64,000 bases of DNA from Thermomicrobiales bacterium (lineage in GTDB: Bacteria > Chloroflexota > Chloroflexia > Thermomicrobiales > UBA6265): positions 128,613 through 192,612 of the forward strand of contig JASGJI010000019.1 of NCBI GenBank assembly GCA_049840815.1, written 5' to 3'. The notes beneath the pieces are model-generated. The model saw only the letters and a program-made list of their open reading frames with translations, made no database searches and was not told the DNA's origin. The translations under genes and the position numbers were made by a program. Below, in pieces: positions 2,293-26,624 of this stretch (positions are counted from its first letter, which is position 1; each line of letters opens with the position of its first letter).

Positions 2293-3618
2293 CTAGCGAG
2301 CAGCAGCGGCAGAGACGGTATCATCGGCAGGGGATGCCTGGGAGATGCGTTCGTCCGCATCCTCATGGACCGTGCTGAACCGTTCCCGCATCATCCAGAT
2401 ACCGGCGGCAGAAACAAGCCCGACAACGAAGAAGATGGTCCACGGCACCATCCCCATTCCCGGCCGCGTGCCAAGGTCATAGAGGGTTCCGCCGAGAAGG
2501 TTCCCCAGGCTGCCGCCAACCGCCAGCGAGAGGGACGCGACGCCAAAGTACGCGCCGCGTGCCGCGGGCTTCGCCAGATTCGCCGTCACGGTCTCCTGCC
2601 CGGGCCGAGCGAGGACCGCACCCACCGAGAAGACGGCTGAGGCCACCAGCAAGCCGAACGTGTTCGCGGAGAATCCGACCAGCAACAATCCACTGGCAAG
2701 CACGATCAACCCGACCACGAGCAGGGCAATCGGCGAGAACCACCGTTCCAGCGCGCGCGGCAGCAGATAGCCAAGCCCGATCGTGATCGCCGTGTTCACG
2801 GCGTAAAGCCAGGACACCGAGGCATCGGTCCCTGTAAGGTCGGCGGCAAAGAGCACGATCGTCAGTCCGAACTGCGACGACGCGAACCAGTACCCGGTCA
2901 GCAGCATCAGGAAGAGCATGAAATCGCGATCGCGGAAGACAGCGCGGAGGCCGGTCGCTGACCCGGCGGCTTCTCCGTCCTCGACCGTCTGCATCCGGGT
3001 CGACACGGAGATGTTGGGCAACATGGCGACCATCACCACGCTGATGATGACGTACGCCGAAGCCGCCGCAATGCAGACGATCCGGAAGTCCGCGCGAATC
3101 AGGAATGCGCCAAGCTGGGTGCCGACCGTCATTCCTGCGCCGGAGATGACGCCTAGCGTCGAGTAGAGGCGTTGGCGTGTCTCTGGCTGAGAGAGCGCCG
3201 CAATGGCTGCCGACTTCGGTGCCTCGAACATGGAGCCGCCAAACCCGGCGAGAATCGCCGCCAGCAGGACCGGCCAGAAATGACTCGCGTAGGCCATCGC
3301 GAAGAATCCCGCCGCGCGGACCAGCATGCCGGTCGCGATGATCGGCTTCGGGCCGATGCGGTCGGCGAGGACCCCGAAAAAGGCGGTCATACCCTGCTGC
3401 GTGAGCTGGCGGATGGCGAGCACGAGGCCAACGGTTCCGGCCGCCCAACCAAGATGATCGACATAATGAACGGCCACCAGCGGGATGACCATGAAGAACC
3501 CGCCCCACGTGAGGAAGGTGCTGATCATCACGGCGATCAGGCCGCTCCGGCGCTGGCGGTCGCTGAGACGTTCGGGCGGTATCGGGGCCGGCAGCGAGAG
3601 GGCGATACGGGCGTTCAT
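2293..3618 (-). CDS. MFS transporter (MdtH-like)
   Basis: About 12 TM segments, GVLADRIGPK motif A. Confidence 0.85.
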   Translation of the reverse strand: MNARIALSLPAPIPPERLSDRQRRSGLIAVMISTFLTWGGFFMVIPLVAVHYVDHLGWAAGTVGLVLAIRQLTQQGMTAFFGVLADRIGPKPIIATGMLVRAAGFFAMAYASHFWPVLLAAILAGFGGSMFEAPKSAAIAALSQPETRQRLYSTLGVISGAGMTVGTQLGAFLIRADFRIVCIAAASAYVIISVVMVAMLPNISVSTRMQTVEDGEAAGSATGLRAVFRDRDFMLFLMLLTGYWFASSQFGLTIVLFAADLTGTDASVSWLYAVNTAITIGLGYLLPRALERWFSPIALLVVGLIVLASGLLLVGFSANTFGLLVASAVFSVGAVLARPGQETVTANLAKPAARGAYFGVASLSLAVGGSLGNLLGGTLYDLGTRPGMGMVPWTIFFVVGLVSAAGIWMMRERFSTVHEDADERISQASPADDTVSAAAAR

Positions 3619-3869
3619 GCAGGAGAAACCTTCGGGAACGGACGGAAACGCCCCCCACGATCGGAACGGTGACGGATCGGATGACGTGCGAATTGTCGGT
3701 GTCGGCGCGGCTTCTGGCAATCGTCACGCCCACCGGATCAGCCGAACGACGGCGGCCTGCCAGCTACACTTGCGCGCATGGCGTCGTGGGGATGACGAGG
3801 GCATCGCCGCCGGTCCCTGGCGGTTCCCGGGGGGCAGAATCCGGATGCAAAGGAGCATCGTTCAGGGCC

Positions 3870-4490
3870 ATGAGCTACGATCCGCAGACCATCTTTACGG
3901 CCATTGATCTCTTCGGTGTCTTCGTAGGGGGAGTTACCGGCGCGTTGGTCGGTCGTCGGTTGCGCTACGACATTACCGGCCTGTGGGGGCTGGCCCTGGT
4001 GAGCGGCCTCGGCGGCGGATTGATCCGCGACACCTTTCTGCAGGATGGTCCGCCGCTGGCGCTGATCGAACCGACCTACCTGCCGACGGTGCTGGCGGCG
4101 GCATTCGCGGTGGCCTTCTTCGGCCCACATCTCGGGTCGCTGAAGATGTCCATCGTGGCCGCCGATGCCCTGGCGCTGGCAAGTTTCACCGTGGCGGGAT
4201 GCCTCCGCACCTTCGATGCGGGGCTGGGCATCTGGCCGGCCATCCTGCTCGGCGTGATCACGGCGGTCGGTGGCGGCATGATCCGCGACATCCTGACCGG
4301 GGACACGCCGATGGTCTTCCGCAACGGCGAGCTCTATGCGCTGGCAGCGCTGGGTGGTTGCCTCGTCGTCGTCCTCTGCCGCGAACTGGATGCGCCCCGC
4401 ACGATCACGAGCCTTGCCGGGATGGCGGTCGTGCTGTTGCTGCGCTTCGGGTCGGTTCGCTGGGGATGGAGGTCGTGGGTACCTCGCTGA
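3870..4490 (+). CDS. Trimeric intracellular cation channel (UPF0126) family protein
   Basis: Duplicated GLGGGLIRD / AVGGGMIRDIL motifs. Confidence 0.9.
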   Translation: MSYDPQTIFTAIDLFGVFVGGVTGALVGRRLRYDITGLWGLALVSGLGGGLIRDTFLQDGPPLALIEPTYLPTVLAAAFAVAFFGPHLGSLKMSIVAADALALASFTVAGCLRTFDAGLGIWPAILLGVITAVGGGMIRDILTGDTPMVFRNGELYALAALGGCLVVVLCRELDAPRTITSLAGMAVVLLLRFGSVRWGWRSWVPR

Positions 4491-4503
4491 GGGGCGCACA
4501 TCG

Positions 4504-4797
4504 TCAGGCGGTCCGTGGCTTCGGCGGGCGGATCAGCAACTCGATGTCCTCATCATGGATCTCGAAGACCCAGCCCGCCACGGTTGCGATGGCGGGGGTG
4601 GAGATCTCTCCGTAGCGGATTTCCACCTGATGCCCCTCGATCTCCACATTTCGCACGGCATGCCGGCTGAACGCCATGCGCGGGTTACGGTAGATCCGGC
4701 GCGGACCGCCGACCTCATCCACCGCTGCGTTCGCGATCCGCGTTGCCTCGTCCTCATCCAGTGGTATCGGTTCTGGTCGCTGTTCTGGCGTGGTCAT
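4504..4797 (-). CDS. Hypothetical protein (97 aa)
   Basis: AGGAGG-like RBS, protein-like composition, fills the gap between flanking genes. Confidence 0.7.
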   Translation of the reverse strand: MTTPEQRPEPIPLDEDEATRIANAAVDEVGGPRRIYRNPRMAFSRHAVRNVEIEGHQVEIRYGEISTPAIATVAGWVFEIHDEDIELLIRPPKPRTA

Positions 4798-4989
4798 CGC
4801 GCATTCCTCCTTGCGTCACCGCTTCGCGACACTGCTGAGCGCATGGTACTCCGCCACCGATCTGCCCGAATGGCATGTGCGCGAGACACAATTCACGAAT
4901 CCCGAAACGTCTGGTACGGTGCATCGAATCGGGCTGGGATGCCCGCCTACGAGCAGTTCGCCCATGCGCGCAGGAGCACTACGACCGCC

Positions 4990-6219
4990 ATGACCGCACC
5001 CGTTGTCCCGCTCCTTCGCTCCCTCTCCGGCGATATCGACGAGATCCTCCCCGGTGTCATCGCCGACCGCCGCCACCTCCACGAGCATCCCGAACTTGGC
5101 TTCCACGAGGTCGAGACCTCCCGTTTCGTGGCGGAACGCCTCGCCGCCCTTGGGGTGGAGGAGATCCGCACCGGGATCAACATCACGGGCGTCACCGGCC
5201 TGATTCACGGGTCGAAGCCATCGGATGGCCCAGGTCGGACCATCCTCCTTCGGGCCGACATGGATGCCCTTCCCATCATCGAAGAGACCGGCGCCGAGTA
5301 CGCTTCGAAGCACGACGGCGTCATGCACGCGTGCGGGCACGACGCGCACACTGCCATCCTGCTCGGGGTCGCGCGGGTGCTCAGCGAGCGGAAGGCGGAG
5401 TTCTCCGGCACCATCAAGCTCCTGTTCCAGCCCGCCGAGGAGATCGGCGACGGCGGCGCGAAGGGCATGATCGAAGACGGCGTGCTGGAGAACCCGCATG
5501 TCGATGCCGTCTTCGGCCTCCACATGAACCCCGCCGTCCCCGCCGACGTCGTGATGGTCGGGAGCGGTCCGCTCTTCGCGGCAGTCGACACCTTCACTAT
5601 CACCGTTCATGGAAAAGGCGGGCATGGTGCCTATCCGAATACGGCGATCGATCCGATCACGGCGGGCATGCACATCCTCTTCGGCCTCCAGCAGCTCATC
5701 TCCCGCGAACTTGACCCGATGACGCCCGCCGTGGTGAATGTCTGCACCTTCCACAGCGGCACCGCGACCAACATCGTCCCTCCCACGGCGACGCTCTCCG
5801 GCACCGTTCGATCGTTCGACCCGGACCTGCGCGAACACCTGAAAGAACGCATCCATGCCATCGCCGAAGGGACCGCCGCTGCCATGGGATCGCAGGCGGA
5901 GGTGGAGTATCACTGGGGCTACCCGGCGGGCATCACCGACGCGGCATTCTCCGAATGGGCACGGGATGCCCTGGCGGAGCAGCTCGGCCCGGATCGGGTG
6001 GCGATCTTCCCGCAGGAAATGGGCGCGGAGGACTTCGCCTACTTCCTCCAGCACCGGCCGGGGACGTTCATCTACGTCGGCTCCGGGAATGCCGAGCGCG
6101 GCATCACCTATGACTGCCATCATCCGAAGTTCGACATCGATGAGGAGGCACTCGCCACCGGCATCGAGGCGACCGTCACCGTGGCGACACGGTTCCTCGC
6201 AGGGGAGGGGGCTGCATGA
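4990..6219 (+). CDS. M20D family amidohydrolase, paralog 1
   Basis: RADMDALP, MHACGHD, FQPAEE, GLH, GAEDF, HHPKFD motifs. Confidence 0.93.
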   Translation: MTAPVVPLLRSLSGDIDEILPGVIADRRHLHEHPELGFHEVETSRFVAERLAALGVEEIRTGINITGVTGLIHGSKPSDGPGRTILLRADMDALPIIEETGAEYASKHDGVMHACGHDAHTAILLGVARVLSERKAEFSGTIKLLFQPAEEIGDGGAKGMIEDGVLENPHVDAVFGLHMNPAVPADVVMVGSGPLFAAVDTFTITVHGKGGHGAYPNTAIDPITAGMHILFGLQQLISRELDPMTPAVVNVCTFHSGTATNIVPPTATLSGTVRSFDPDLREHLKERIHAIAEGTAAAMGSQAEVEYHWGYPAGITDAAFSEWARDALAEQLGPDRVAIFPQEMGAEDFAYFLQHRPGTFIYVGSGNAERGITYDCHHPKFDIDEEALATGIEATVTVATRFLAGEGAA

Positions 6220-7415
6220 CCCACCAGCTTCCCGCCCTCCGCCACGACATCGACGAGATCATTCCCGGCGTCATCGCCGACCGGCGGCACGTCCACGAAC
6301 ACCCCGAAGTCGCCTTCCATGAGCACGCCACCGCGGCATTCGTCGCGGACCGGCTCGTAGCACTCGGCGTAGGAGACATCCGGACCGGCATCAACGGGAC
6401 GGGAGTCACGGGGGTGATCCGCGGAACGAAACCAGCATCTGGCCCTACGCGGACGATCCTCTTCCGTTCGGAGCTCGATGGCCTGCCCGTGCAGGAGGAG
6501 ACCGGAGCCGACTACGCCTCGCAGGTGACGGGGGTCTCCCACGCCTGCGGGCACGATGGCAACATCGCCGCGCTGCTCGCAGTCGCGCGCATCCTGATGG
6601 GACGACGCAACACGTTCTCCGGCTCCGTGAAGGTCCTCTTCCAGCCCGCCGAGGAATTGCCACCCGGCGGCGCGAAGGGGATGGTCGAGACTGGAGTGCT
6701 GGATGACGTGGATGCCGTCGTTGTGATGGGGATCAGTCTCTTCAATGATCTTGGTACGGTCATCACCTCGCCGGGGCCGATCCTCGCAGCCTCCGATATC
6801 TTCACCCTGACGATCACGGGGCAGGGTGGACATGCCGCCCTGCCGCACCAGGCCATCGATCCGGTGGTGATCGCCTTCCAGGTCGGCTCTGCATTGCAGA
6901 CGCTGGTCTCGCGGGAGGTCGATCCAATGGGACGTGCCGTGGTGAGCATCTGCTCGCTTCACGGCGGCGATGTCCACAACGTGATCCCAGAGACCGTGAC
7001 GCTCGCCGGGACAGTCCGCACGTTCGATCCCGACGTCCGCACCTACATCGCACGGCGGATCGACGAGATCGCCTCCGGAATCGCCGCAGCCAGCGGGGCC
7101 AGCGCCACACTCGACTACACCTGGGGTTACCCCGTCACCGTCAATGATCCAGAGATCACCCGGCTCGTGCAGGATGTTGCGGCTACGGTGGTTGGGGCGG
7201 AGCATTTGGGGCCGCTGGTTCCACTCCTCGGCGGGGAGGATGCTGCCTACTTCCTGGAAGGCCGCCCCGGCTGCTACGCCTTCGTTGGGGCACGCAACCC
7301 GGAGAAGGGGTTCACCTTCATGCATCATCACCCGAAGTTCGATTTCGACGAAGACGCGCTGGCAATCGACATCGAGATGATGGTCGCCACTGCCCTCCGA
7401 TTCCTCGATTCCTGA
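6216..7415 (+). CDS. M20D family amidohydrolase, paralog 2 (divergent active site)
   Basis: RSELDGLP, SHACGHDGN, FQPAEE, GGEDA, HHPKFD. ATGA overlap with paralog 1. Confidence 0.9.
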   Translation: MTHQLPALRHDIDEIIPGVIADRRHVHEHPEVAFHEHATAAFVADRLVALGVGDIRTGINGTGVTGVIRGTKPASGPTRTILFRSELDGLPVQEETGADYASQVTGVSHACGHDGNIAALLAVARILMGRRNTFSGSVKVLFQPAEELPPGGAKGMVETGVLDDVDAVVVMGISLFNDLGTVITSPGPILAASDIFTLTITGQGGHAALPHQAIDPVVIAFQVGSALQTLVSREVDPMGRAVVSICSLHGGDVHNVIPETVTLAGTVRTFDPDVRTYIARRIDEIASGIAAASGASATLDYTWGYPVTVNDPEITRLVQDVAATVVGAEHLGPLVPLLGGEDAAYFLEGRPGCYAFVGARNPEKGFTFMHHHPKFDFDEDALAIDIEMMVATALRFLDS

Positions 7416-7476
7416 TTCTTCGCTCACGGAAGACATCGCCCAGATGTCCCGGCCACACTCGACAGGAGAGGTTCCC

Positions 7477-8682
7477 ATGGTCACGACCACGCTTCAGAAC
7501 GACATCGACGAGCTCCTTCCCGGTGTGATCGCCGACCGGCGCTGGCTGCACGAGCATCCGGAACTCGGGTTCGAGGAAGTGCAGACGGCGGCCTTCATCC
7601 AGCAGCGGCTTGAGTCGCTGGGAGTGGAGGATATCCGCACCGGCATCGCGAAGACCGGCGCGACGGCCCTGATTCGAGGCACGGCGAATGGTCCCGGCAA
7701 GGACAAGGTCATTCTCCTTCGCGCCGATATCGATGCCTTGCCGATCCTGGAGGAGAACGAGACCGAGTACGTGTCGCAGACGCCGGGTACCATGCATGCC
7801 TGCGGGCACGATGCCCACACCGCGATCCTGCTCGGCGTCACCCGCCTCCTGGTGGAACGCCGCAACGAGTTCAGCGGCACGGTGAAGGTCCTGTTCCAGC
7901 CGGCGGAGGAGCGTTTCCCCGGCGGCGCCTCGGTAATGGTGCAGGAAGGCGTCCTGGAAGACCCACACGTCGATGCCGTCTTCGGCCTGCACATGGCCAA
8001 CGACACGGAAGTCGGATTCGTGAAGATCGCAGGCGGCCCGATCCTCGCCGCGCCGGACAGTTTCGAAATCATCATCCAGGGCAAGGGCGGCCACGCGGCG
8101 CGGCCGCAGGCGGCGGTTGATCCGGTGGTGATCGGCTCCCAGATCGTCGCGGCACTGCAAACGCTGGTCTCCCGCGAGACGGACCCGATGGACAACGCCG
8201 TGGTCAGCACGACGATCTTCCAGGCGGGCGAGGCGTTCAACGTGATCCCCGATACCGCACGGCTGGGTGGCACCGTCCGCACGTTCACGACCGAAACGCG
8301 CGAGCATATGGCGAAGCGCATCCCGGAGATCGCCAAGGGCATTGGCGAGGCGATGGGCGCGACGGTCGAGGCGACGTTTACCTACGGCTATCCCGCAACG
8401 ATCAACGATCCCGCCGAATCGGAGCGCCTGCGCGCCGTGGCGATCGCGGTCCTCGGCGAGGAGAAGGTCCTGCCGATGAAGCCGATCATGGGCGGCGAGG
8501 ACTTCTCCTACTTCCTGAACGAGCGTCCTGGCTCCTTCTTCTTCGTCGGCTCGAAAAACACGGAGAAGGGCCTGATCTGGGGCCACCATCATCCAAAGTT
8601 CGACATCGATGAGGAGTCGATGGGCGTCGGCATCGCGGTCAGTGTCGCGAACGTGATCGACTGGTTCTCCACCGAGAGGTGA
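7477..8682 (+). CDS. M20D family amidohydrolase, paralog 3
   Basis: Full motif set, AGGAGAGG RBS. Confidence 0.93.
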   Translation: MVTTTLQNDIDELLPGVIADRRWLHEHPELGFEEVQTAAFIQQRLESLGVEDIRTGIAKTGATALIRGTANGPGKDKVILLRADIDALPILEENETEYVSQTPGTMHACGHDAHTAILLGVTRLLVERRNEFSGTVKVLFQPAEERFPGGASVMVQEGVLEDPHVDAVFGLHMANDTEVGFVKIAGGPILAAPDSFEIIIQGKGGHAARPQAAVDPVVIGSQIVAALQTLVSRETDPMDNAVVSTTIFQAGEAFNVIPDTARLGGTVRTFTTETREHMAKRIPEIAKGIGEAMGATVEATFTYGYPATINDPAESERLRAVAIAVLGEEKVLPMKPIMGGEDFSYFLNERPGSFFFVGSKNTEKGLIWGHHHPKFDIDEESMGVGIAVSVANVIDWFSTER

Positions 8683-8687
8683 GCGAT

Positions 8688-8882
8688 GAGAGGAGTGAGA
8701 AGCGAGGGGGTTGCTGGGCGGGTTCCTGCATTCGGGAGTTCCGTATTCCCCCCACGTCCTACACCGCTTGCTGAATCCTGCTGATCCGGGCGTGTGGTGG
8801 ACGACCATACGTAGGGGCCGATCCCGTATCGGCCCGGTTTCGACAACGATGAGTTCCGCATTCCACCCAACTCACTCCTCTC
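8688..8882. repeat. Intergenic inverted-repeat element with an internal GTAG REP-like palindrome
   Basis: GAGAGGAGTGAG (8688-8699) / CTCACTCCTCTC (8871-8882); GTAG-GGGCCGAT-CCCGT-ATCGGCCC at 8811-8835. Confidence 0.7.
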
Positions 8883-8909
8883 GCCTCTCCCCTCAGAAAG
8901 GGTTCATCC

Positions 8910-10121
8910 ATGCCAACTGCTCCTGTCCCGTTGGCCGTCGAGGTCGATGAAATCCTCCCCGGCGTGATCGCGGACCGCCGTCATTTCCACGAGAACCCGG
9001 AACTGGGGTTCCAGGAGTTCGAGACCGCGAAGCTCGTCGCCGAACGCCTCGCGTCGCTGGGCGTCGAGGACATCCGGACCGGCATCAACACGACCGGCAT
9101 CACCGGCCTTATCCGGGGGTCTGGTTCGGGACCGAACGCCGACAAGACGATCCTGCTCCGAGCGGACATGGACGCCCTTCCGATCATCGAGGAAACGGGC
9201 GTCGAGTACGTGTCGAAGCACGAGGGCGTCATGCACGCCTGCGGTCACGATGCGCACACCGCGATCCTGCTCGGCGCAGCCCGCATCCTGACCCAGCGGA
9301 AGGACGCGTTCGCGGGGACCGTCAAGGTGCTCTTCCAGCCCGCCGAGGAAATGCCGCCCGGTGGCGCGCTCGGCATGATCGAGCAGGGCGTGCTGGAGAA
9401 TCCGCATGTCGATGCCGTCTTCGGGCTGCACATGGCGAACGCCCTTCCGGTAGGGCAGGTGGCCGTGGCAGGGGGGCCGATCCTGGCAGGAGGTGATCTC
9501 TTCAAGATCACCATCCAGGGCAAGGGCGGGCATGCCGCACGTCCGCAGGCGGCGATCGACCCGGTGGTGATCGGGTCGCAGATCGTGGCGGCGTTCCAAA
9601 CCATCGTTTCGCGCAGCGTCGATCCGATGGAGAGCGCGGTGGTCAGCATCACGTTCTTCAAGGCCGGGGAGGCATTCAACGTCATCCCGGATGTCGCCAC
9701 CATCGGAGGGACGGTGCGCTGGTTCTCGATGGACGTCGCCGCCCTGGTCGAGGAGCGGATGATCGCCATCGCCGAAGGGATCGGCAAGGCAGCCGGTGCC
9801 GACGTGACCGTCGAGATCATCAAGGGCTACCCGCCAACGATCAACGACGCCGACCAGGCGGCCATCGTGCGCGAGGCACTGGTGGCCGTGGCCGGCGAGG
9901 AGAACGTCATCACGCCAACGCCGATCATGGGCGGCGAGGACTTCTCGCGCTTCCTGCTGAACCGGCCCGGCGCGTTCTTCAACATCGGCTCGATGAACGT
10001 CGAGAAGGGCTTCGTCTACGGGCATCATCACCCGAAGTTCGACATTGACGAGGAATCGCTCGGGATGGGCGTCGCGGCAATGGTGCAGACCGTCCTGACC
10101 TGGTTCTCACGAGAGGAGTGA
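8910..10121 (+). CDS. M20D family amidohydrolase, paralog 4
   Basis: Full motif set. Confidence 0.93.
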   Translation: MPTAPVPLAVEVDEILPGVIADRRHFHENPELGFQEFETAKLVAERLASLGVEDIRTGINTTGITGLIRGSGSGPNADKTILLRADMDALPIIEETGVEYVSKHEGVMHACGHDAHTAILLGAARILTQRKDAFAGTVKVLFQPAEEMPPGGALGMIEQGVLENPHVDAVFGLHMANALPVGQVAVAGGPILAGGDLFKITIQGKGGHAARPQAAIDPVVIGSQIVAAFQTIVSRSVDPMESAVVSITFFKAGEAFNVIPDVATIGGTVRWFSMDVAALVEERMIAIAEGIGKAAGADVTVEIIKGYPPTINDADQAAIVREALVAVAGEENVITPTPIMGGEDFSRFLLNRPGAFFNIGSMNVEKGFVYGHHHPKFDIDEESLGMGVAAMVQTVLTWFSREE

Positions 10122-10171
10122 GGAGATGGTCTCGATGCAGGGCTTGTGCTGGCACCGTTTCCTCACTCCTC
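10113..10171. repeat. Intergenic inverted-repeat element
   Basis: GAGGAGTGAGGA (10113-10124, contains the stop codon) / TCCTCACTCCTC (10160-10171). Confidence 0.65.
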
Positions 10172-10210
10172 ATTCCTGTGTCCCCACCTCTCCCAGAAAG
10201 GCACGCATCC

Positions 10211-11443
10211 ATGACATCCGCAACCGCAACCCTTGTCGCCGAGGTCGATGAGCTCCTGCCAGGCGTCGTCGCCGACCGCCGCTGGCTGCACGAACACCCG
10301 GAACTCGGCTTCCACGAGACGGAGACCGCCGCCTTCGTCCTCCAGCGGCTCGAATCGCTCGGCGTCGAGGACATTCGCACGGGCGTCGGCGGCACCGGCG
10401 TCACGGCGTTGGTGCGGGGCATAAAGACTTCGGCCAACCCCGGCAAGGTCCTGATGCTGCGCGCGGACATGGACGCCCTCCCCATCCTGGAGGAGAACGC
10501 GGTCGAGTACGTATCGCAGAACCCCGGCGTCATGCACGCCTGTGGTCACGACGCCCACACCGCCATGCTGCTCGCCACCGCGCGCCTCCTGATGGAGCGG
10601 CGCAGCGAGTTCAGCGGGGCGGTGAAGCTCCTGTTCCAGCCGGCGGAGGAAGCGCATCCGGGCGGCGCGATCGGCATGATCCGCGATGGCGCGCTGGAGA
10701 ATCCGCACGTCGATGCCTCGCTGGGCCTGCACGTCATGTCCGACGTGCCGACCGGCAAGATCGGCGTGCAGGAGAGCTTTGGCACGAGCAATTCGGACCG
10801 CTTCACGATCTTCGTGAAAGGCAAGGGCGGCCACGCTTCCGCGCCCCACAATACGGTCGATCCGGTCATCATCGGGTCGCATATCATCGTGGCGCTGCAG
10901 AACCTGGTCTCCCGCGAGACCGACCCGATGGAGCCGGCCGTCCTCTCCGTGACGGCGAACCTGGCCGGGGAGGCGTTCAACGTGATCCCGGACAGCGCCG
11001 AGATCCGGGGCACGGTCCGCACCTACAGCGGCGAGGTGCAGGATCACCTCGAACGCCGCATGGCCGAGGTCGTGGAGGGTATTGCGAAGGCGCTCGGTGG
11101 GTCGGCGACACTCGACTACCGGCGCGGGTATCCCTGCCTGCCGAACGATGCGGGGATGGCCGCCATCGTCCGCGCCGCCGCGATCGAGGTGGTAGGCGAG
11201 GACGATGTCTTCGAGCCGCCGATGGGCATGGGCGGGGAGGACTACGCCTACTTCGCACAGGCAGTCCCGGCCTGCTTCTTCTGGGTTGGCGTGCGCAACG
11301 ACGAGAAGGGGTTGAACTGGCCGCACCATCATCCGCGCTTCGACATCGACGAGGACGGCATGGCGGCCGGCATCGCGACGATGGTCGCCGCGTCGATCCG
11401 CTACCTGAACGGGGAGGGGAGAGGCGAGAGAAGTGAGAAGTGA
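10211..11443 (+). CDS. M20D family amidohydrolase, paralog 5
   Basis: Full motif set; C-terminal tail encoded by the repeat arm. Confidence 0.93.
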   Translation: MTSATATLVAEVDELLPGVVADRRWLHEHPELGFHETETAAFVLQRLESLGVEDIRTGVGGTGVTALVRGIKTSANPGKVLMLRADMDALPILEENAVEYVSQNPGVMHACGHDAHTAMLLATARLLMERRSEFSGAVKLLFQPAEEAHPGGAIGMIRDGALENPHVDASLGLHVMSDVPTGKIGVQESFGTSNSDRFTIFVKGKGGHASAPHNTVDPVIIGSHIIVALQNLVSRETDPMEPAVLSVTANLAGEAFNVIPDSAEIRGTVRTYSGEVQDHLERRMAEVVEGIAKALGGSATLDYRRGYPCLPNDAGMAAIVRAAAIEVVGEDDVFEPPMGMGGEDYAYFAQAVPACFFWVGVRNDEKGLNWPHHHPRFDIDEDGMAAGIATMVAASIRYLNGEGRGERSEK

Positions 11444-11623
11444 GGAAACGAGGATTGGGGTGCAGCGAAGTCCACGGTCTCTGTCCGTAGATGCGGCCCT
11501 TGTGGCCGCCCTGCGAACGGCGGCCACAAGGGCCGCATCTACGAAGGAGGGATGGCAACACCATCGGACGTCGCGTCCCGCTGCCATCGTCCTCACTCCT
11601 CACTTCTCTCACCTCTCCCCTCC
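11413..11623. repeat. Inverted-repeat element (34-bp arms) enclosing an inverted GTAG REP doublet
   Basis: Arms 11413-11446 / 11590-11623 with 2 mismatches; perfect 25-bp stem 11486-11510 / 11519-11543. Confidence 0.8.
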
Positions 11624-11750
11624 GGAAGCTGGACAAGTCACCGCGATGGCGCGATAACGCTTCCAGAACGATGCGCGACCGGTGGTGTGGTCGTGCGGTC
11701 GGGCCACGCCGGACGCTGCACCAGCCGGCACACGACGAAAGATGGATCTG

Positions 11751-12962
11751 ATGGTCGCTTCACCCCCCACATCGAAACTCCACGCGGATGTCGATGAGAT
11801 CATGCCCGGTGTCATCGCCGACCGGCGTTGGCTTCACGAACATCCCGAACTCTCCTTCCACGAGGTCGAGACCGCGAAGTTCGTCGCGGATCGCCTCGCC
11901 CAACTCGGGATCGAGGACATCAAGACCGGCGTCGGAGGCACCGGCGTCACGGGCCTCATCCACGGCACGAAGCCGTCCGACGCACCCGGCAAGGTCCTGA
12001 TGGTGCGGGCCGACATGGACGCGCTCGCCATCCTGGAAGAGACGAACACCGCGTATGCATCGAAGAATCCCGGCGTGATGCACGCCTGCGGTCACGATGC
12101 CCACACGGCGAACCTGCTTGGTGTGGCGCGGCTGCTGCTCGACCGCCGCGATCAGTTCAGCGGCACCGTCAAGCTCCTGTTTCAGCCCGCCGAGGAAGTC
12201 CACCCGGGTGGCGCCAGGGGCATGATCGCCGACGGCGCGCTGGAGAACCCGCATGTGGACGCCGCGCTCGGCCTGCACGTGCAGTCGAACACGCAGGCGG
12301 GCCTGATCGGCATCCGGACGGGTCTCGGGTCCGCGAATTCCGATCGCTTCACGATCACCATCCAGGGCAAGGGCGGCCATGCCTCCCGCCCGGACATGGC
12401 GGTCGATCCGGTGGTGATCGGCTCGCACATCGTGGTCGCCTTCCAGAACCTCGTCTCCCGCGAGACCGATCCCCTCCAGCCCGCCGTGCTCTCCACCACG
12501 GTGCTGCAGGCGGGCGAGGCGTTCAACGTCATCCCCGACACGGCGGAACTGCGCGGCACGGTTCGCACATTCGATCAGGACACCCGCGAGCACATCGCCG
12601 CGCGCATCCCGGAGGTGGCGGCAGGCATCGCGGCGGCGCTGGGTGGCTCGGCGGACGCGACGTTCATGCGCGGCTATCCGAGCATCCAGAACGATCCGGC
12701 GATGGTCGAGATCGTCCGCGAGGCGGCCATCGAGGCGGTGGGGGAGGAGAACGTCTTCGAGCCACCGGTCGGCACGGGAGGCGAGGACTTCTCGTACTTC
12801 TCGCTGGAGGTTCCCAGCTGCTTCTTCTACGTGGGCGTCCGCAACGAGGAGCGCGGCATCGTCTGGGGCCATCATCATCCGAAGTTCGACGTCGAGGAAG
12901 AGGGCCTCGCCGCCGGGCTGGCGACGATGACCGGAGCAATCATCAAGTACCTGAATGCGTAA
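11751..12962 (+). CDS. M20D family amidohydrolase, paralog 6
   Basis: Full motif set; start chosen by analogy with paralogs. Confidence 0.92.
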   Translation: MVASPPTSKLHADVDEIMPGVIADRRWLHEHPELSFHEVETAKFVADRLAQLGIEDIKTGVGGTGVTGLIHGTKPSDAPGKVLMVRADMDALAILEETNTAYASKNPGVMHACGHDAHTANLLGVARLLLDRRDQFSGTVKLLFQPAEEVHPGGARGMIADGALENPHVDAALGLHVQSNTQAGLIGIRTGLGSANSDRFTITIQGKGGHASRPDMAVDPVVIGSHIVVAFQNLVSRETDPLQPAVLSTTVLQAGEAFNVIPDTAELRGTVRTFDQDTREHIAARIPEVAAGIAAALGGSADATFMRGYPSIQNDPAMVEIVREAAIEAVGEENVFEPPVGTGGEDFSYFSLEVPSCFFYVGVRNEERGIVWGHHHPKFDVEEEGLAAGLATMTGAIIKYLNA

Positions 12963-13000
12963 GTACGGAATCTCGTAATCAGATCAAGGAGTATCACACA

Positions 13001-14215
13001 ATGGTTGCAGGCGTTGTCGAGAAGATCCGGTCGGACGTCGATGAGATCATGCCAGGGGTCGTGGCCGACCGCCGCTGGTTGCACGAGCATCCGGAGCTTG
13101 CCTTCGAGGAGGTCGAGACGGCGAAGTTCGTGGTGGAGCGCCTCCAGCAGCTCGGGGTGGACGACATCCAGACAGGCGCCGGGGGCAGCACCGGCGTCAC
13201 TGGACTGATTCACGGATCGAAGCCAGCATCGGGCAAGACCAAGGTCGTCGCCCTCCGTGCCGACATGGACGCGCTGCCGATCCTGGAGGAGAACGCCGTC
13301 GAGTACGTCTCCCAGAACCCGGGCACGATGCACGCATGCGGACACGATGCGCACACCGCCATGCTGATGGCGGTCGCCCGCGTGTTGCTGGATCGCCGCG
13401 ACGAGTTCAGCGGCACCGTGAAGCTGCTCTTCCAGCCGGCGGAGGAACTGCCACCGGGAGGCGCCATCGGGATGGTGCAGGCGGGCGTGCTCGACTCACC
13501 GCACGTCGATGCCGTCTTCGGGGCGCACGTTTCGTCGCAACTGGCAGCCGGCAAGATCGGATTGCGTCCGGCTGGGCCGGGCTGCGCGGCGGCGGACCGC
13601 TTCCGGATCGTGATCCAGGGCAAGGGCGGCCATGCCGCGCGTCCGCAGGCAGCAGTCGATCCGGTGGTGATCGGCTCGCAGATCGTGCTGGCGTTGCAGA
13701 CGCTGGTCTCCCGTGAGACCGATCCGATGGATGCCGCAGTCGTCAGCACCACGGCCTTCCTGGCCGGTGAGGCCTTCAATGTCATTCCGGATACGGCGGA
13801 GTTGCGCGGAACGGTGCGCACGCTGACCGAGGAGACACGCCAGAACATCGCCAGGCGGCTGCCGGAGATTGCCAAGGGGATCGGCGAAGCAGCCCGCGCG
13901 GAGATCAGCGTCGATTGGTACTGGGGCTACCCGAGCATCCAGAACGACGGCGACATGGTCGCCATCGCCCGCGCGGCGGCGGAGGAAGTCGTCGGTGCGG
14001 AGAACGTCGTCGATTCCCCACTCGGCATGGGCGGCGAGGACTTCGCATACTTCTCGCTGGAGCGCCCAAGCTGCTTCTACAACGTCGGCACGCGCAACGA
14101 GGAGCGCGGCATTACCTGGGGCCACCACCACCCTCGCTTCGACATCGAGGAAGAGGGAATGAGCGCCGGCATCGCGACGATGGCGAACATCGCCATCAGC
14201 TACCTGGCCTCGTAA
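13001..14215 (+). CDS. M20D family amidohydrolase, paralog 7
   Basis: Full motif set, AAGGAG RBS. Confidence 0.93.
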   Translation: MVAGVVEKIRSDVDEIMPGVVADRRWLHEHPELAFEEVETAKFVVERLQQLGVDDIQTGAGGSTGVTGLIHGSKPASGKTKVVALRADMDALPILEENAVEYVSQNPGTMHACGHDAHTAMLMAVARVLLDRRDEFSGTVKLLFQPAEELPPGGAIGMVQAGVLDSPHVDAVFGAHVSSQLAAGKIGLRPAGPGCAAADRFRIVIQGKGGHAARPQAAVDPVVIGSQIVLALQTLVSRETDPMDAAVVSTTAFLAGEAFNVIPDTAELRGTVRTLTEETRQNIARRLPEIAKGIGEAARAEISVDWYWGYPSIQNDGDMVAIARAAAEEVVGAENVVDSPLGMGGEDFAYFSLERPSCFYNVGTRNEERGITWGHHHPRFDIEEEGMSAGIATMANIAISYLAS

Positions 14216-14245
14216 GCCGCCACTGCATCCGGCAGGCGTGCGCCG

Positions 14246-14282
14246 ATCGGGACGGGATCACCCTTGATCCCGTCCCGATTTC
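14246..14282 (+). terminator. Terminator of the amidohydrolase array
   Basis: 15-bp perfect stem ATCGGGACGGGATCA/TGATCCCGTCCCGAT followed by a short T-run. Confidence 0.7.
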
Positions 14283-14373
14283 GTGTGACCTTGAAGGGGA
14301 CATTGGCGCGACCGCTGCGACGTCAGAGCCGACGATCCCGGTCCGCGTCCCCAGTTCCAAGGAGTCCGTTTTC

Positions 14374-15114
14374 ATGTCCGAACCACGCAACACCACGCCG
14401 CACGGCGTTCCCGCCGGTGCGCCCGCTCCGGAAGCCCCGAAGTCTGCCTTCACGTCGTTCTGGCTCTACAAGCGCAAGCCGGGTTGGACGGCGATCAATG
14501 GCGACGAGCATTGGCCCGCCGCCGCCGCCCAGTTCCAGTCACTGATGAACGAGCTGCCGGATGGCATCGAGCTACGCGGCACCTATTCCTCGCTCGGCCT
14601 CACGCCGGATGTCGAGTTCATCGTCTGGGCCGTCGCGCCGACGCTCGACCTGCTGCAGGGCCTTGCGATCGCAATCGACCGCACGGCAATCGGTCAGCAC
14701 CTCGAACTGAAGCGCGTCTATCACGGTTCGGCGGGCGTCTCCCAGTACGACCCGACGCACGGTCCAGCCTTCCTGCTCGGCAAGCCGGCCAAGCGCTACC
14801 TGAGCGTCTACCCGTTCACGAAGACGCCGGACTGGTTCCTGCTGCCATACCAGGAGCGTCGCCGCCTGATGATCGAGCATGGCGAACTCGGCCGCGAATA
14901 CCCGTCGATCAACACGAACACGGTCAATTCCTTCGGTATCGCCGACCAGGAGTTCATCGTCGCACTGGAGGACGACAATCCGAAGCTGCTGATCGACATG
15001 GTACAGAAGCTGCGTGGCGCCGAGGTCCGCAAGTGGACGGCGGTGGACACCCCCATCTACCTGGGCGACCGCAAGCCGATCGGCGATGTGCTGTCCGACC
15101 TGCGCGGCCGGTAG
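14374..15114 (+). CDS. chdC: Chlorite dismutase family protein, probably coproheme decarboxylase
   Basis: VYPFTKTPDWFLL, proximal EHG, SFGIADQEFIVA, TPIYLG motifs; no Cld-type distal Arg seen. Confidence 0.75.
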   Translation: MSEPRNTTPHGVPAGAPAPEAPKSAFTSFWLYKRKPGWTAINGDEHWPAAAAQFQSLMNELPDGIELRGTYSSLGLTPDVEFIVWAVAPTLDLLQGLAIAIDRTAIGQHLELKRVYHGSAGVSQYDPTHGPAFLLGKPAKRYLSVYPFTKTPDWFLLPYQERRRLMIEHGELGREYPSINTNTVNSFGIADQEFIVALEDDNPKLLIDMVQKLRGAEVRKWTAVDTPIYLGDRKPIGDVLSDLRGR

Positions 15115-15138
15115 GTAATACCGGAAATACGGAGATAC

Positions 15139-15174
15139 GGAACGGCGGATGACCCATCGGTCATCCGCCGTTCC
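15139..15174. terminator. Bidirectional stem-loop
   Basis: 16-bp perfect stem between convergent genes. Confidence 0.65.
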
Positions 15175-15193
15175 GCGTTCATAGGAGCCTCGA

Positions 15194-16246
15194 TCAGTCC
15201 GCCACGGCGGCTTCCGCACCCGCGACTGGATGGCCATAGGTGCCCGGCTCGTTCTCCTTGCCAACCGCCTCCATCAGGCCACGCAGGTACCCGATCGCAT
15301 AGAGCCGCCCCATCACCTCGTAGCCGGGATTGTCGTTGCGCTCACCGGCCAGCGTCGGGACGTGATCGACCCGCATCACGCCGTCGAAGCGAACGTCGTT
15401 GTAGGCACGGATCGTCTCGTGCATGTCCGTCTGCCCCTCGTCGTGGAAGGTTTCGACGAAGGTGTCGCGGTCGCCCCGCACATCGCGGAAGTGAACGAAA
15501 TGGATCTTGCCCTGACGCCCGAAGTGACGGATCGTCTCCGGCACATCGCATCCCATCGCCGAGAAATTGCCCTGGCAGAAGGTGAGGCCGTTATTCGGGC
15601 TGGGAGCCATATCGATCACCCGCTGGAAGTTCTCCGGGCTGGTGAGGATACGTCCGATCCCGCGCACCGGCGAGCGCGGGGGATCGTCCGGATGCACCGC
15701 GAGCTTCACGCCCGCCTTCTCCGCGACCGGCACGACCTTCTTCAGGAAGTAGTCCATCCGCTCCCAGAGCTGCTCCTCCGTCACCTCGCCCCATTCCGTC
15801 AGCGGGGCGTTGTCGATCAGCGCCTGATCGTACCCGGTGACCATCGCGCCGCCGCGCCCCGGCACGTCCATCGTCGTGCGCAGCCAGCCGATACCCGCCA
15901 TCCAGTTGTGGCAGATCACCGGAATGTCCAGCCGCCCCATGTTCTCGATCAGCTGGCAGAAATGCGCGATGTGCTCGTCGCGATCGCCGAGACCGAGTTT
16001 GATCGGCTCCTGGATCGCGGCAGGACCGGACTCGATCACCTGCACGTTCAGGCCCTCGGCCAGGAAGGATTCCTTCACGCTCCGCAAGAGCTCGAAATCC
16101 CAGGGCGGGGGCAGGTCCGGCCCTTCCGGCACGCCGGTGACGACGTCCTGCACATCGAGCTGCTTGCAGAGATCCCACATCAGCGACTTCTGCGGACGCA
16201 GGACTTCGGCAATGCGGAACGGAACATTGGGGGTGGTATTGGCCAT
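15194..16246 (-). CDS. uxuA: Mannonate dehydratase
   Basis: ICHNWM, LAVHPDDPP, GLTFCQG, IHFVHFRDV, RVDHVP motifs. Confidence 0.9.
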   Translation of the reverse strand: MANTTPNVPFRIAEVLRPQKSLMWDLCKQLDVQDVVTGVPEGPDLPPPWDFELLRSVKESFLAEGLNVQVIESGPAAIQEPIKLGLGDRDEHIAHFCQLIENMGRLDIPVICHNWMAGIGWLRTTMDVPGRGGAMVTGYDQALIDNAPLTEWGEVTEEQLWERMDYFLKKVVPVAEKAGVKLAVHPDDPPRSPVRGIGRILTSPENFQRVIDMAPSPNNGLTFCQGNFSAMGCDVPETIRHFGRQGKIHFVHFRDVRGDRDTFVETFHDEGQTDMHETIRAYNDVRFDGVMRVDHVPTLAGERNDNPGYEVMGRLYAIGYLRGLMEAVGKENEPGTYGHPVAGAEAAVAD

Positions 16247-18026: not shown

Positions 18027-20069
18027 CTACTCGGCGGTAACCGTACCCGCCATCCCGGCCTGCCGATGCCCAGGGACCGAGCAGTAGAAGTCGTAGCTGC
18101 CAGCCGGGAGGTTGACTGTGAACGTCGCCTGCTCGCCATTTTCCAGCAGGCCGGAGTTGATCGCGGGCTGGTCGATCACAAAGTCGTGCTGGATCGCGCC
18201 GGAGTTGACCAACGTGATGGCGACATCGGTGTCCGCCGGGATCGCGATCGCGCGCGTCCGATAGCCAAGATCGTACGCCTCGACCGTGATCGCCAAAACG
18301 CCGTCGTCATCGGCAACCGGCGTGGCGGCCTCCTGCGCGGTGACTCCGCTCTCTTCGGTCTCCGCCACGGGAGTGGATGCCGCAGCATCGGCCGCATCCG
18401 GCACGGTACCACCGCCGATGCCCAGCTTGAAGGCGACCAGCTCGGCGACCGGCTCCGGAACCTCGCCCTCCGGGAACTGCCCCGGCTTTACCATGAACGG
18501 ACCGCCTGCGCCAACGAGCAGCAGGTCGCCCGCGATCGAGACCGGAGCATTGATGCCACCGTGTAGCTGGAAGTTCCAGAGCTCGGTGCCATCCTCGGTC
18601 GAGTAGCCGCGTACGATACTGTTCCGGCAGAGATCACGACATCGTTGGCGACCGCTGCCGAACCAAGCGGAAGCGCTGGCGTGGTGTGCTGCCACAGCAC
18701 ATCACCGGTGTTCGCATCGAGGCAGAGGAACTCGCCGCTGGACTGGCTCTCGTCGATCCGGCTGAAGTCGAGTCCGGTCGAGTTATACCAGGTCGGCCAG
18801 TTGTTCACTGCAACGAACACGCGACCGTTGGAGACGGCGATGGGACATTGCACGGCCCCGTTGAAGCCCGGGAACACCTCGATGTACTCGTCGTCCGGCA
18901 ATTCCTCCAGCTCATCGTTCTGATGCTTCCCGACGAGCGTGTTCCAGATCAGGTTGCCGGTCTCGCGATTGACGGCGATGACATGCCCGTTCTTGCCGGA
19001 ACCGATGACTGCCGGAATCTCGCGGCCGTGCGACGTGATGCTCGTCACAACCGGCGTGTTCTGGTAGTCGAGGTCGAAGATATCGCGGGAGCGCGGCTGC
19101 TGATACCAGCGGACTGCTCCAGCCACCGGGTCGAATGCGACCAGCGAGTTGGTGTAGAGGTTGTTGCCCGGCCGGCTCCCGGAGTTGGGGTTGCCGGGGG
19201 TACCGGGGAACGGCCCGGGATTGCCGGTGCCGAAGTAAAGCTGGCCGGCATCGTCCACGGAGACCGCGTACCAGACGCCGCCGCCGGAATTCGCGCGGGA
19301 GTCGCCCCATAGGTCATCGGTGGTGGTGTCCCACTGCCACATGGTCGCTCCGCTACTGGCATCCAGCGCATAGAGAATGGCCCTTGGTACCGCCGGTGTA
19401 CCAGCCTGATGGCGTGCCCGGATTGCCAGGGACGGTGCTGACATACACCGTGCTGTCGTAGATGGTGGGCGCAATGGTGATGCTCTCGCCCGGATGATTG
19501 GTCAGCTGAACGCGCCAGACCAGCTCCCCGGTCTCGATGGCGACGGCAGCCACTTCGCCGGTGTTGCCGAGCGCACCGTAAACTTGCCCGTATCCGATGG
19601 CGAGTCCATTCGGCCCATGCGTGCCGACGTTGAAGTCGGTCTTCCAGATCTCTTCGCCGGTTTCGCGGTTCAGCGCGATGAAGTTGCTCTGCATGTCGTG
19701 CACGTAGATGACATCGCCCGCCACGATCGAGGTAGAGGTGATGGCGCCATAGCCGGACTTGCCTGTCAGGGTATAGCGCCAGGCCGGACCGAGCGTGTCG
19801 ACATTCGACGCATCAATGGTGGACCTGGCAGCGGCGCGCGTCGCTGCCAGGTTTCCGGCAGGCGTCGGCCAGTCAGCCGCAAACTCGGTGATTTCGGCGG
19901 GGATGGGATCACCCATCGAAACGGGCGTAGCCGGCACCATGATGCCCCCATCCTGGGCGACGGTCGAGCCGATCGTACTCACTCCAGCGATGGCCGTACC
20001 GGCCACAGCGGTTGTGGCTACGAAGGTACGACGGTTGACGCGTGTTCTGGACGACTCAGTCACAGGTAT
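18027..20069 (-). pseudogene. Tat-exported PQQ-type beta-propeller dehydrogenase with a C-terminal cupredoxin domain; two frameshifts (~19384 and ~18622), possibly assembly errors
   Basis: Three overlapping ORFs continue one protein: NRRTFV signal, propeller repeats, GGVW...GTGN, DIFDLD, then HDF...YCSVPGHRQAGM. Start taken at VTESSR, approximate. Confidence 0.75.
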
Positions 20070-20131
20070 GCCTCCCCGGCTGGTGCTCACCGCAATGTGA
20101 GCCGACGAACATGTCTTGCAATGCAGACTTT

Positions 20132-20906: not shown

Positions 20907-23002
20907 TCAGGCGTTCGGGCGAACGCTGATCTCACCAGCCTCCAGCGCTCCGACCTCGACCACGAGCCCGGCCGCACCACCACGCAGCGGACGATCGTCG
21001 TCCGTCGCCTCCAGCGTGACGCCCGCGACCGTCCCACGCAGGGTATTCCCCTCGACGGTCAGCGTGAAGTCGTACTGCACATCGACCTCCCACGGGATAT
21101 CGGCCTCGGCGAGGACCGTGCGCTCATTGACACACTTCACGAGCTGCGCCTTGCCGCCCTCATGCAGCACCAGCGCGTAGTAGCGCCGCATGCCGCCAAT
21201 CCGCGCCGCAACGCCCGCCGAGGTCGCCAACGGGATGCTCGCGGTGGTGCTGATCGTATAGTCGGCCCAGTCTTCGGACCCCTGCGCGATCAGGCCGATG
21301 CCGCGATTCTGCACGATGTGGAATTCCGGCTTGAACCAGTCGTCCCAGGAATCGACGCCGTCGACCCACGCTTCCTTCCACTGGACCCCTGTCGCGTCCT
21401 TCCAGCGATTCCCCGCCCCGCTGCTCTTGCGGAAGGTCGTGTTCGGCGCGCCGGACCATGTCAGCCAGTCGAGTGCGACGGTATCGTCTGCCGCGCCGGT
21501 GACACGGATGCCGACCTGCTGGATCGGCTGATTCGGCAGGGCCGGCACGATCCAAGAGAGCGTCTCGTCACCACCCGGCGCGAGGGAGATGGTCGGCGCG
21601 GCGATCTCCTGTAGCGCATCGTGGTCGTCATAGGCACGAAGGACGAGTCCGACCGTGGCCGAAGCGCCGTTGGTGGCCGGAGCGATGACATGCGCCGTGA
21701 TCGTCTGTCCCGGATGCAGCGTCGGGGACGCGATGAGGCGGTAGCCCCGCGCTCGGAAGACCGAGGTCTCCTCCGGTGCGAAGGTTGGCGTCATCACGGT
21801 CGCACGATCTCCAGCGAGGGTGATGGCCAGTTGTCCGTCCGTATTGACGAGCAGCGTGTCCGGCTCGTCCGCCGTGAATCCCTGTGTCGAGCTGGGCAGG
21901 GTGAAGTGGAAGCGCGAGCCATCCTTCGGGACGATCGCCTCCTGACCCGTCAAGGCACGCGCGGCGTTCACGAGGCGGTACGTCTCGCGGACGGCATCGG
22001 AGATGCCGCGTCCCCCTCGGCGGTAGAGAGGTAGAGCTTGTCCGCCACCGGATCGCGCAGATCCGGGACCTCGGTGAAGGCGGCGAGGCCATCGCGGATA
22101 CCCAGGATCGTGCCGACATTTCCGGCGTTGCAGTCGGTATCCCAGCCACCCGTGTTGACGATCATCTGAGACCGCCGGAAGTCGCCGTTGCCATGCAGGA
22201 GCGCCATGATGATGAGCGCGTGATTCGGCACCATGTGGCAGTTACCGGGGAAGAGTTCGTAGTTGTAGTGCTGCTCGATCTTCGCGCGGGTGGCGTACCA
22301 GTCGTCGTTCGCCGCGTGCCAGCTACGAACGTCGTGGATGAGGCGGGCGATGGTCGAATCGGCGGGGATGACGCCGAGCGCCGTGTCCAGCAGCGCGTTC
22401 ATGTCGTGCTCGACAAACGCCTGCGCCTCCAGCGCCGCGATCACCTGTGCGCCGTAGATCGCCTCGCCATCGTGGGAGACGCTGCCAGCCCGGCGTGCCC
22501 AGTCGGCGGCCTTCTCCGGATCGCCAGGGAAGAGCATCGCCCAGCCATCAATAAAGATTTGCGCCCCGATCTGCTCGGCGATGGTGGTGCCATTCAACGC
22601 GATCGACCCCGACTCCGGGGCGCGGATGCCCTCCTGCAGACGCAGGAAGGCGGTGTGCTCGGTGGAGACGCCCATCCCACCCCACCAGAGGACGGTACGC
22701 TGGTCGATCAGGTAGTTCAGCCAGCCGTCGCCGATCTGGGCAGGCGTGAGGTCCGGGGCGAACCCGTTGTCCTCCAGCGCGCGCGGGAAGGTGAAGGTGC
22801 CGGCGATGTCGTCGTCGGTGACGATCAGCGGCATGTTGAAGCGCTCATGCACGTAGCGATCGACCTCGCCGAGTTCCGCGAGGATCGTCTCGTGCGTCCA
22901 GCCCTCGAACGGGCGCCCGAGATAGACGCCGATGATCTTGCCGAGCACGCCGGCGTAGACGCGTTCCAGATAGTCAGTCGAGGTGATGTCGTAGGCGCTC
23001 AA
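20907..23002 (-). pseudogene. ADP-ribosylglycohydrolase family protein with a C-terminal beta domain; one-base frameshift in a G run (~22014), probably an assembly error
   Basis: VTDDDI and GWDTDCNAGN motifs. Adding one G gives EGGRGISDAVRETYRLVNAAR, joining the two ORFs. Confidence 0.8.
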
Positions 23003-23137
23003 GGTTTCCCCCGTTGGTGATGCGTATGGGTCAGGTGGAACTCGCGTGTGGTGGAGAGCGGGCCGACATGGATGTCCGCAGCGCGACAGGCCCCGTTGGT
23101 ATCATGCGCGGCGTTCGCCGAGATCCGACGTGGCGTG

Positions 23138-24973: not shown

Positions 24974-25047
24974 GTGAATCTGCCTCTGCGTTCCGGGATT
25001 GAGCAGCCGGAGCGAGTGCCTGTTGCCCTCGCTCCGGCAGGAATGCG

Positions 25048-26409: not shown

Positions 26410-26624
26410 CGGGCACTCCAGGGCAATAGATACGTATCGGTTGGACACAGTCAGCGCAGCAAGCTGGAACGGTTGCTGGATCTCCTTTCCGAATGAGCGC
26501 GAATGGACCACCGTTCAATGGCGCAACGAAATGCGGAGCAGCACATACCCAGAATGCGTTGATGCGTGGAGGGCATCGTATGGCGTCACCAACAGAAGCG
26601 CAATCCCTGCCGTCAGATCAGACA

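Follow-up and report, generated by a model that had tools for sequence, protein, structure and literature searches.

The 64,000-nucleotide (nt) window analyzed here comes from a Thermomicrobiales bacterium (GenBank assembly GCA_049840815.1, contig JASGJI010000019.1; the complete set of contigs is referred to as G000) and has a G+C content of 65%. On its plus strand, at positions 4990 to 14215, it carries seven co-oriented open reading frames (ORFs) of ~400 amino acids (aa) each, all of which encode M20D amidohydrolases (Table 1). Seven co-oriented genes of this length had been proposed from the sequence (the original prediction), and the ORF coordinates, together with matches to TIGR01891 and Pfam models, bore this out. 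From copy 1 to copy 7, the intergenic gaps measure -4, 28, 227, 89, 298, and 38 nt. The start of copy 3 may instead be an internal Met codon at 7477. Pairwise protein identity among the seven copies is 48 to 67%, and their DNA identity does not exceed ~78% over 300-nt blocks; there are no long identical tracts and no recent conversion tracts, which rules out recent gene conversion. Judged by eye, the N termini have no obvious signal peptide, and the seven proteins are probably cytoplasmic.

Table 1. Genes, spacers, and hairpin of the seven-gene M20D array (positions in the 64,000-nt window)
Feature	Coordinates	Strand	Description
Copy 1	4990..6219	+	409 aa; TIGR01891, 381 bits; sister of copy 2 (98/92); ortholog in G002 with 83% identity, dN/dS 0.11
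Copy 2	6216..7415	+	399 aa; one metal-ligand His missing; ATGA shared with copy 1
Copy 3	7444..8682	+	412 aa; TIGR01891, 379 bits; dN/dS 0.13; orthologs in G002 and G003
Spacer 3/4	8683..8909		Inverted arms of a dispersed repeat at 8676-8699 and 8871-8894; small GC hairpin
Copy 4	8910..10121	+	403 aa; TIGR01891, 370 bits; modeled reference copy
Copy 5	10211..11443	+	410 aa; C-terminal tail GEGRGERSEK; sister to copy 6 lineage (100/99)
Spacer 5/6	11444..11741		Inverted arms at 11413-11446 and 11590-11623 around a perfect 25-bp palindrome at 11486-11543
Copy 6	11742..12962	+	406 aa; TIGR01891, 381 bits; start may be 11751
Copy 7	13001..14215	+	404 aa; TIGR01891, 367 bits; orthologs in G002 and G003
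Terminator-like hairpin	14245..14290	+	GC-rich stem of 15-16 bp, then AUUUCGUGUG; -42.7 kcal/mol, z -4.5

The array encodes M20D (ILR1/aminoacylase/CpsA-like) binuclear metallo-amidohydrolases. All seven copies scored 328 to 381 bits on TIGR01891 (cutoff, 153.75) over profile positions 5 to 366, and in each of them both the PF01546 catalytic domain and the PF07687 dimerization/lid domain inserted into it were above the cutoff. The best-scoring curated model for every copy was the CpsA model NF040868, matched over its full length with 365 to 425 bits. None of the seven reached the equivalog cutoff of this model (500 bits); thus, they count as CpsA relatives rather than as CpsA. The model for the DoeB2 N-acetyl-2,4-diaminobutanoate deacetylase (NF038260) gave 265 to 319 bits, under its cutoff of 550, and no ectoine-degradation genes were seen near the array. 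AlphaFold models of copy 4 and copy 2 had predicted local distance difference test (pLDDT) scores of 96.7 and 95.5, respectively. In a Foldseek search, the best match of the copy 4 model was 4EWT, a putative aminohydrolase of Staphylococcus aureus that is the closest solved structure (40% identity; TM score, 0.91/0.95; root mean square deviation, 1.9 Å; E = 7e-49), and 1YSJ, 1XMB, and 6SLF all matched at an E value of ~1e-42 or better. Bacillus subtilis YxeP (1YSJ) is also among the closest solved structures (TM score, 0.83/0.93). In contrast to the array, 4EWT and 1YSJ each come from a single gene, and no substrate is named in the 4EWT entry.

A second species of the genus (G002) has seven genes in the same order that are one-to-one orthologs of the array copies. 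The flanks common to the two genomes hold genes for a GAF protein, a major facilitator superfamily (MFS) protein, and a Gly_transporter protein and then chlorite dismutase-like and UxuA genes. In a maximum likelihood (ML) tree, each copy pairs with its G002 counterpart with a support of at least 100/99. This syntenic seven-gene array in a congener excludes mis-assembly, which the original prediction had already held to be unlikely and against which the limited DNA identity of the paralogs also speaks. The dN/dS ratios of the seven ortholog pairs range from 0.05 to 0.13 (dS is near saturation, so the ratios are approximate), and by this measure all seven copies are clearly maintained by purifying selection. 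Copy 6 is the most conserved, with 93% identity to its ortholog and a dN/dS of 0.05. A third congener (G003) has a complete four-gene array, made up of the orthologs of copies 3, 4, 6, and 7, in a different neighborhood.

Monophyly of the seven copies, a point raised with the original prediction, did not hold. The copies do not form one private burst but are interleaved in the ML tree with copies from other genomes: copies 5 to 7 group with the second gene of a tandem pair elsewhere in the same genome (the C4 pair, described below) and with copies from three other genera in a clade with 100/100 support, within which copy 5 splits off from the copy 6 lineage. Copies 1 and 2 pair as sisters on long branches (98/92). 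The family-wide clade is supported at 98/99, and the other branching order inside it is without resolution. The physical order, (1,2)(3)(4)(5,6)(7), fits a series of local single-gene duplications. The N-terminal motif D(I/V)DE(I/L/M)xPGV(I/V)ADRR, which had been singled out as unusual, is indeed present in all seven copies but is not special to the array; it occurs in nearly every Thermomicrobiales member of the family versus 1 of 85 homologs elsewhere and was therefore inherited. The 4.7-Mb genome contains 16 M20D genes above the cutoff, nine of them in the clade of the array (the seven copies and the C4 pair), and 13 of the 16 lie in tandem groups. The C4 pair (C4:78374-80829; locus L101, 8374-10823) is near genes for an EF-G-like GTPase, OsmC, a methyltransferase, and APH and is kept in G002 and G003. 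More distant M20D lineages account for another two tandem pairs (C14:218535-221928 and C11:377594-380355; loci L102 and L103); one of them lies a few kilobases from an enolase superfamily (MR_MLE) gene and the other upstream of an amino acid ABC transporter.

The closest characterized relative of the array is CpsA/CPSso from Sulfolobus solfataricus, with which it shares membership in M20D, subunits of ~43 kDa, and the best curated model. CPSso removes almost any C-terminal residue of short peptides, in addition to hydrolyzing amino acids that are N-blocked (PMC4177664). CpsA is, however, a single gene, whereas the array belongs to a bacterium that has nine genes of the clade, all of them for putative enzymes. 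The ILR1-like enzymes of Arabidopsis (ILR1, IAR3, and ILL1-6; 1XMB) resemble the array in forming a multigene M20D family (PMC11511702, Table 1). Between the array and ILL2, the match is 275 bits, with TM scores of 0.82 to 0.88 to the copy 4 model. ILR1-like members differ in the indole-3-acetic acid (IAA)- or jasmonic acid-amino acid conjugates that they cleave, and some lie in tandem. This family is the best precedent for the diversification of one M20D enzyme into a substrate panel. It differs from the array in that its members are plant hormone-conjugate hydrolases targeted to the endoplasmic reticulum or cytosol, are not encoded in a single contiguous array, and are ~36 to 40% identical to the copies. 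Two other comparators were rejected: Sapep is PepV-like, with a His/Asp/Glu metal site that has no bridging Cys, and OngB is an enzyme of the amidohydrolase superfamily and not of M20.

The active site was compared with that of the Corynebacterium N-alpha-acyl-glutamine aminoacylase (N-AGA/CsAga), which has the same Cys-bridged binuclear site, Arg/Asn clamp, and two-pocket layout as the array. In an inhibitor complex of N-AGA (6SLF), the metal ligands are Cys105, His107, Glu141, His168, and His370; the amino acid moiety is held by Glu140, Asn191, Asp301, and Asp340, with Arg264 and Asn251 as carboxylate binders; and the acyl pocket comprises Phe170, Phe185, Leu186, Leu335, Gly337, and Met354 (PMC7209930). 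We mapped these residues onto the array through a phmmer alignment whose numbering was calibrated on the Cys and His ligands. This alignment stops before His370, and the fifth ligand was placed instead through an alignment with ILL2, whose metal ligands we take to be C137/H139/E173/H197/H397. All seven copies have this fifth-ligand His, which directly precedes the Pro of the motif HHHP (CHHP in copy 1). The equivalents of Cys105, His107, Glu140, Glu141, Asn251, Arg264, and Asp340 are invariant in the seven copies and their G002 orthologs. All five metal ligands are complete in copies 1 and 3 to 7, and copy 2 has no equivalent of H168/H197.

In contrast to this shared core, the residues Asn191 and Asp301, which make N-AGA specific for Gln, are replaced in all seven copies: from copy 1 to copy 7, the residues at these positions are T/I/S/L/R/R/R and W/W/Y/K/R/R/W, respectively. 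The acyl pocket positions vary as well, with N/F/A/A/M/Q/S at the equivalent of Phe170, L/I/I/I/G/G/G at Phe185, F/L/L/L/T/S/C at Leu186, and E/L/I/I/G/G/G at Leu335. Mean entropy over seven mapped pocket sites was 1.70 versus 0.97 over 396 aligned columns (P = 0.006 by resampling). Conservation between orthologs combined with diversity among paralogs marks 36 sites, which cluster beside the motifs AEE, GLH, GGH, and HHHP. These are the pocket-proximal loops to which the original prediction had pointed as the seat of diversification. Its individual readings were also confirmed, the loop after GxH included: the residues after AEE are IGD/LPP/RFP/MPP/AHP/VHP/LPP in copies 1 to 7, as quoted, and those before HHP differ among the copies (YDC/FMH/WGH/YGH/WPH/WGH/WGH). 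As a cautious guess, the Arg-lined pockets of copies 5 to 7 may favor acidic residues.

Copy 2 departs from the other copies at its metal site. It has Gly/Ser at the position of N-AGA His168/ILL2 His197, a position taken by the ligand His in all other sequences examined, and it carries VVMGIS for FGLH, HDGN for HDAH, RSELDG for RADMDA, and EDA for EDF. These changes recur in its G002 ortholog and in P0001 to P0003, the only three other close orthologs (at least 84% identity) among 5.8 billion proteins; the next match is 57% identical. The dN/dS of copy 2 is 0.09. Copy 2 is, as read from these comparisons, a maintained variant, confined to the genus, whose second metal site is damaged, and it would be either a mononuclear or altered-chemistry enzyme or else a noncatalytic partner. 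As such, it offers a natural test of M20D function, or of a new role, with a crippled second metal site.

We consider it probable that the array is a subfunctionalized set of cytoplasmic aminoacylases/carboxypeptidases with differing substrate preferences, which arose by lineage-specific tandem expansion. Other M20D members include aminoacylases, hippuricase, IAA-conjugate hydrolases, and Met-X carboxydipeptidases (PMC11511702). Because the catalytic base, the Arg/Asn clamp for a free alpha-carboxylate, and, in six copies, the complete metal site are conserved, aminoacylase/carboxypeptidase chemistry is expected, in which the seven enzymes would hydrolyze the amide bond preceding a C-terminal L-amino acid in N-acyl-amino acids and short peptides. 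Given that the pocket residues vary from paralog to paralog and mostly agree between orthologs, the members of the set most likely act on different substrates, with each paralog preferring different N-acyl-amino acids or peptide C termini. Starting from fewer ancestral copies, the array would have grown as single genes repeatedly duplicated in tandem. It may act downstream of peptide-type ABC importers, finishing off imported peptides and conjugates. The genome of the array has 48 genes for family 5, peptide-type ABC binding proteins (SBP_bac_5), and 42 to 58 were counted in nine further genomes checked from the family, versus 16 in a 2.9-Mb, two-contig genome from another family of the order (G021). 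One of the G003 arrays is adjacent to an SBP_bac_5 gene, and the other to a clustered homolog.

Several points weigh against this interpretation. The pocket mapping relies on sequence homology to an enzyme that is only ~32% identical to the copies, and there is some ortholog drift at the pocket positions, where 4 to 7 of the seven ortholog pairs agree per site. The number of SBP_bac_5 genes does not track M20D copy number across genera, and no conserved transporter or regulator accompanies the arrays. Finally, with hairpins in its spacers, the array could be transcribed in as many as three units (copies 1-3, 4-5, and 6-7). If the paralogs do differ in specificity, they form a natural panel for learning which pocket residues set specificity in M20D, a family with few known substrates. 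Such a panel may also be useful for biocatalysis, such as the resolution of N-acyl-amino acids and surfactant synthesis (the topic of a review, PMC11511702). The array would further add to a picture of this Thermomicrobiales family as a heavy scavenger of peptides and amino acid conjugates.

The array might instead be a dosage amplification, in which the copies do the same job and are retained for enzyme output. Adaptation to a limiting activity usually begins with tandem amplification, and the core catalytic and carboxylate-binding residues are kept in all copies. Dosage arrays are, however, normally near-identical and unstable, whereas the duplications here are old, as judged by the divergence of the proteins, the near saturation of dS, and the presence of orthologs across species and partly across genera. 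The pocket sites are also more diverse than average, and we regard dosage as very improbable. There is an even fainter chance that the array is dedicated to one catabolic or salvage route together with neighboring transporter genes. A Gly_transporter (PF03458) gene is located just upstream (3669-4490), a homolog of it with 38% identity adjoins a single-copy M20D gene in G016, and MFS genes are nearby. These flanks are kept only in the G000/G002 pair, however; G003, G004, and the C4 locus have unrelated neighbors, and no regulator, riboswitch, or pathway enzyme was found near the array.

It is also conceivable, but unlikely, that the paralogs combine with one another in dimers or tetramers whose active sites are composite and that copy 2 is a noncatalytic or regulatory partner, for example of copy 1. 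In N-AGA, a loop of the partner's dimerization domain reaches into the active site, and the dimer is the catalytic unit (PMC7209930). The corresponding GKGGH-x-x-x loop varies in the array, where position 211 is Y/L/R/R/A/R/R in copies 1 to 7. Moreover, despite the missing ligand, purifying selection acts on copy 2 and its predicted fold is good; it is a sister gene of copy 1, and the two genes share an ATGA overlap. This overlap is not kept in G002, which has a 41-nt gap in its place. No fused paralogs were found, and one or two copies suffice in most relatives. A bolder version, by analogy, is a combinatorial hydrolase in which seven co-expressed paralogs (nine genome-wide) would mix and copy 2 would act as a specificity or regulatory subunit; we think this quite improbable. 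A 1,200-aa triple-M20D frame in G523 was considered as a fusion and rejected, as it consists of three separate ORFs with stops. A subfunctionalized set of enzymes with differing preferences thus remains our preferred reading of the array.

To place the array among its relatives, we counted clade copies in 192 species genomes of the order. Most have one or two, several genera have four to six, and G000 and G002 rank highest with at least nine each. One genus has a run of six genes, two of them damaged; in this array (L107, G189:C62, 5074-8670), one copy is truncated C-terminally and another is split by a frameshift. Thus, arrays of relatives also lose copies. Independent runs of three or four genes from a different M20D lineage occur in another family of the same class, and 80 diverse loci from other phyla comprise 75 with a single copy and 5 with two copies. 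The array had been called unusual in size, and its genus does have the largest count among the 192 genomes; the array is, however, the top of a continuum, since arrays of two to six copies are common in the family. We found no paper on bacterial M20D arrays or on M20 expansion in Thermomicrobiales. The idea of an amplified cytoplasmic deacylase library for diverse conjugates stands insofar as the set is amplified, its catalytic residues are kept, and its pockets are diverse. Its further description as an undescribed system had to be dropped: no partner gene is kept with the arrays beyond the genus, smaller arrays are common, and the enzyme family, including its multi-paralog, multi-specificity behavior, is well known. 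The locus is a large, old, maintained expansion of a known enzyme family and not a new kind of system.

The array had been described as ending at one terminator. A terminator-like hairpin does follow copy 7, although a simple terminator scan did not pick it up because its U tract is short; however, a strong hairpin is also present in spacer 5/6 and a smaller one in spacer 3/4. The palindrome in spacer 5/6 has a folding energy of -66.5 kcal/mol (z -9.7), and the smaller GC hairpin in spacer 3/4 is followed by GGUUUCG. With these internal hairpins, a single transcript is not established. A sigma-70 promoter scan gave nothing on the plus strand, and an Rfam scan of positions 3000 to 16000 at permissive E values returned only chance microRNA-like matches and no riboswitch or leader.

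The array spacers contain dispersed repeats at 8676-8909, 10156-10198, and 11413-11623. They include an inverted-arm element with a purine-rich arm, GGAGGGGAGAGGCGAGAGAAGTGAGAAGTGAGGA, and a complementary pyrimidine-rich arm. In blastn searches of the same genome, each arm had 74 to 81 hits and the 25-bp palindrome had 135 (counts that include self and overlapping hits). One repeat arm encodes the last codons of copy 5, which specify its C-terminal tail, and the stop codon. Among sequencing runs, only two wastewater metagenome contig sets contain 13 to 17% of the words of the locus, in sparse, low-depth fragments of related strains, some of which span the 2/3 and 6/7 junctions. Related-strain contigs in two metagenomes skip 143 nt between the arms of spacer 5/6, and this insert looks polymorphic or mobile. 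By their sequence features, the spacer elements are REP/MITE-like insertions rather than array-specific regulators.

Directly downstream of the array is a chlorite dismutase family (HemQ-like) gene (14374-15114), a homolog of which adjoins the G002 array and, on the opposite strand, the array of G012. Some other apparent shared neighbors were rejected as antisense ORFs inside M20D genes. Farther along, on the minus strand at 18027-20090, PQQ beta-propeller matches are divided between two overlapping ORFs (18488-19474 and 19353-20090), after which comes an ORF with a cupredoxin domain (18027-18695); the arrangement resembles a PQQ dehydrogenase/blue-copper gene that is frameshifted or fused. 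Also on the minus strand, at 20907-26511, a sugar-type ABC transporter (SBP_bac_1/8 and two permeases) has as neighbors an ADP-ribosylglycohydrolase gene and an unassigned ORF of 354 aa.

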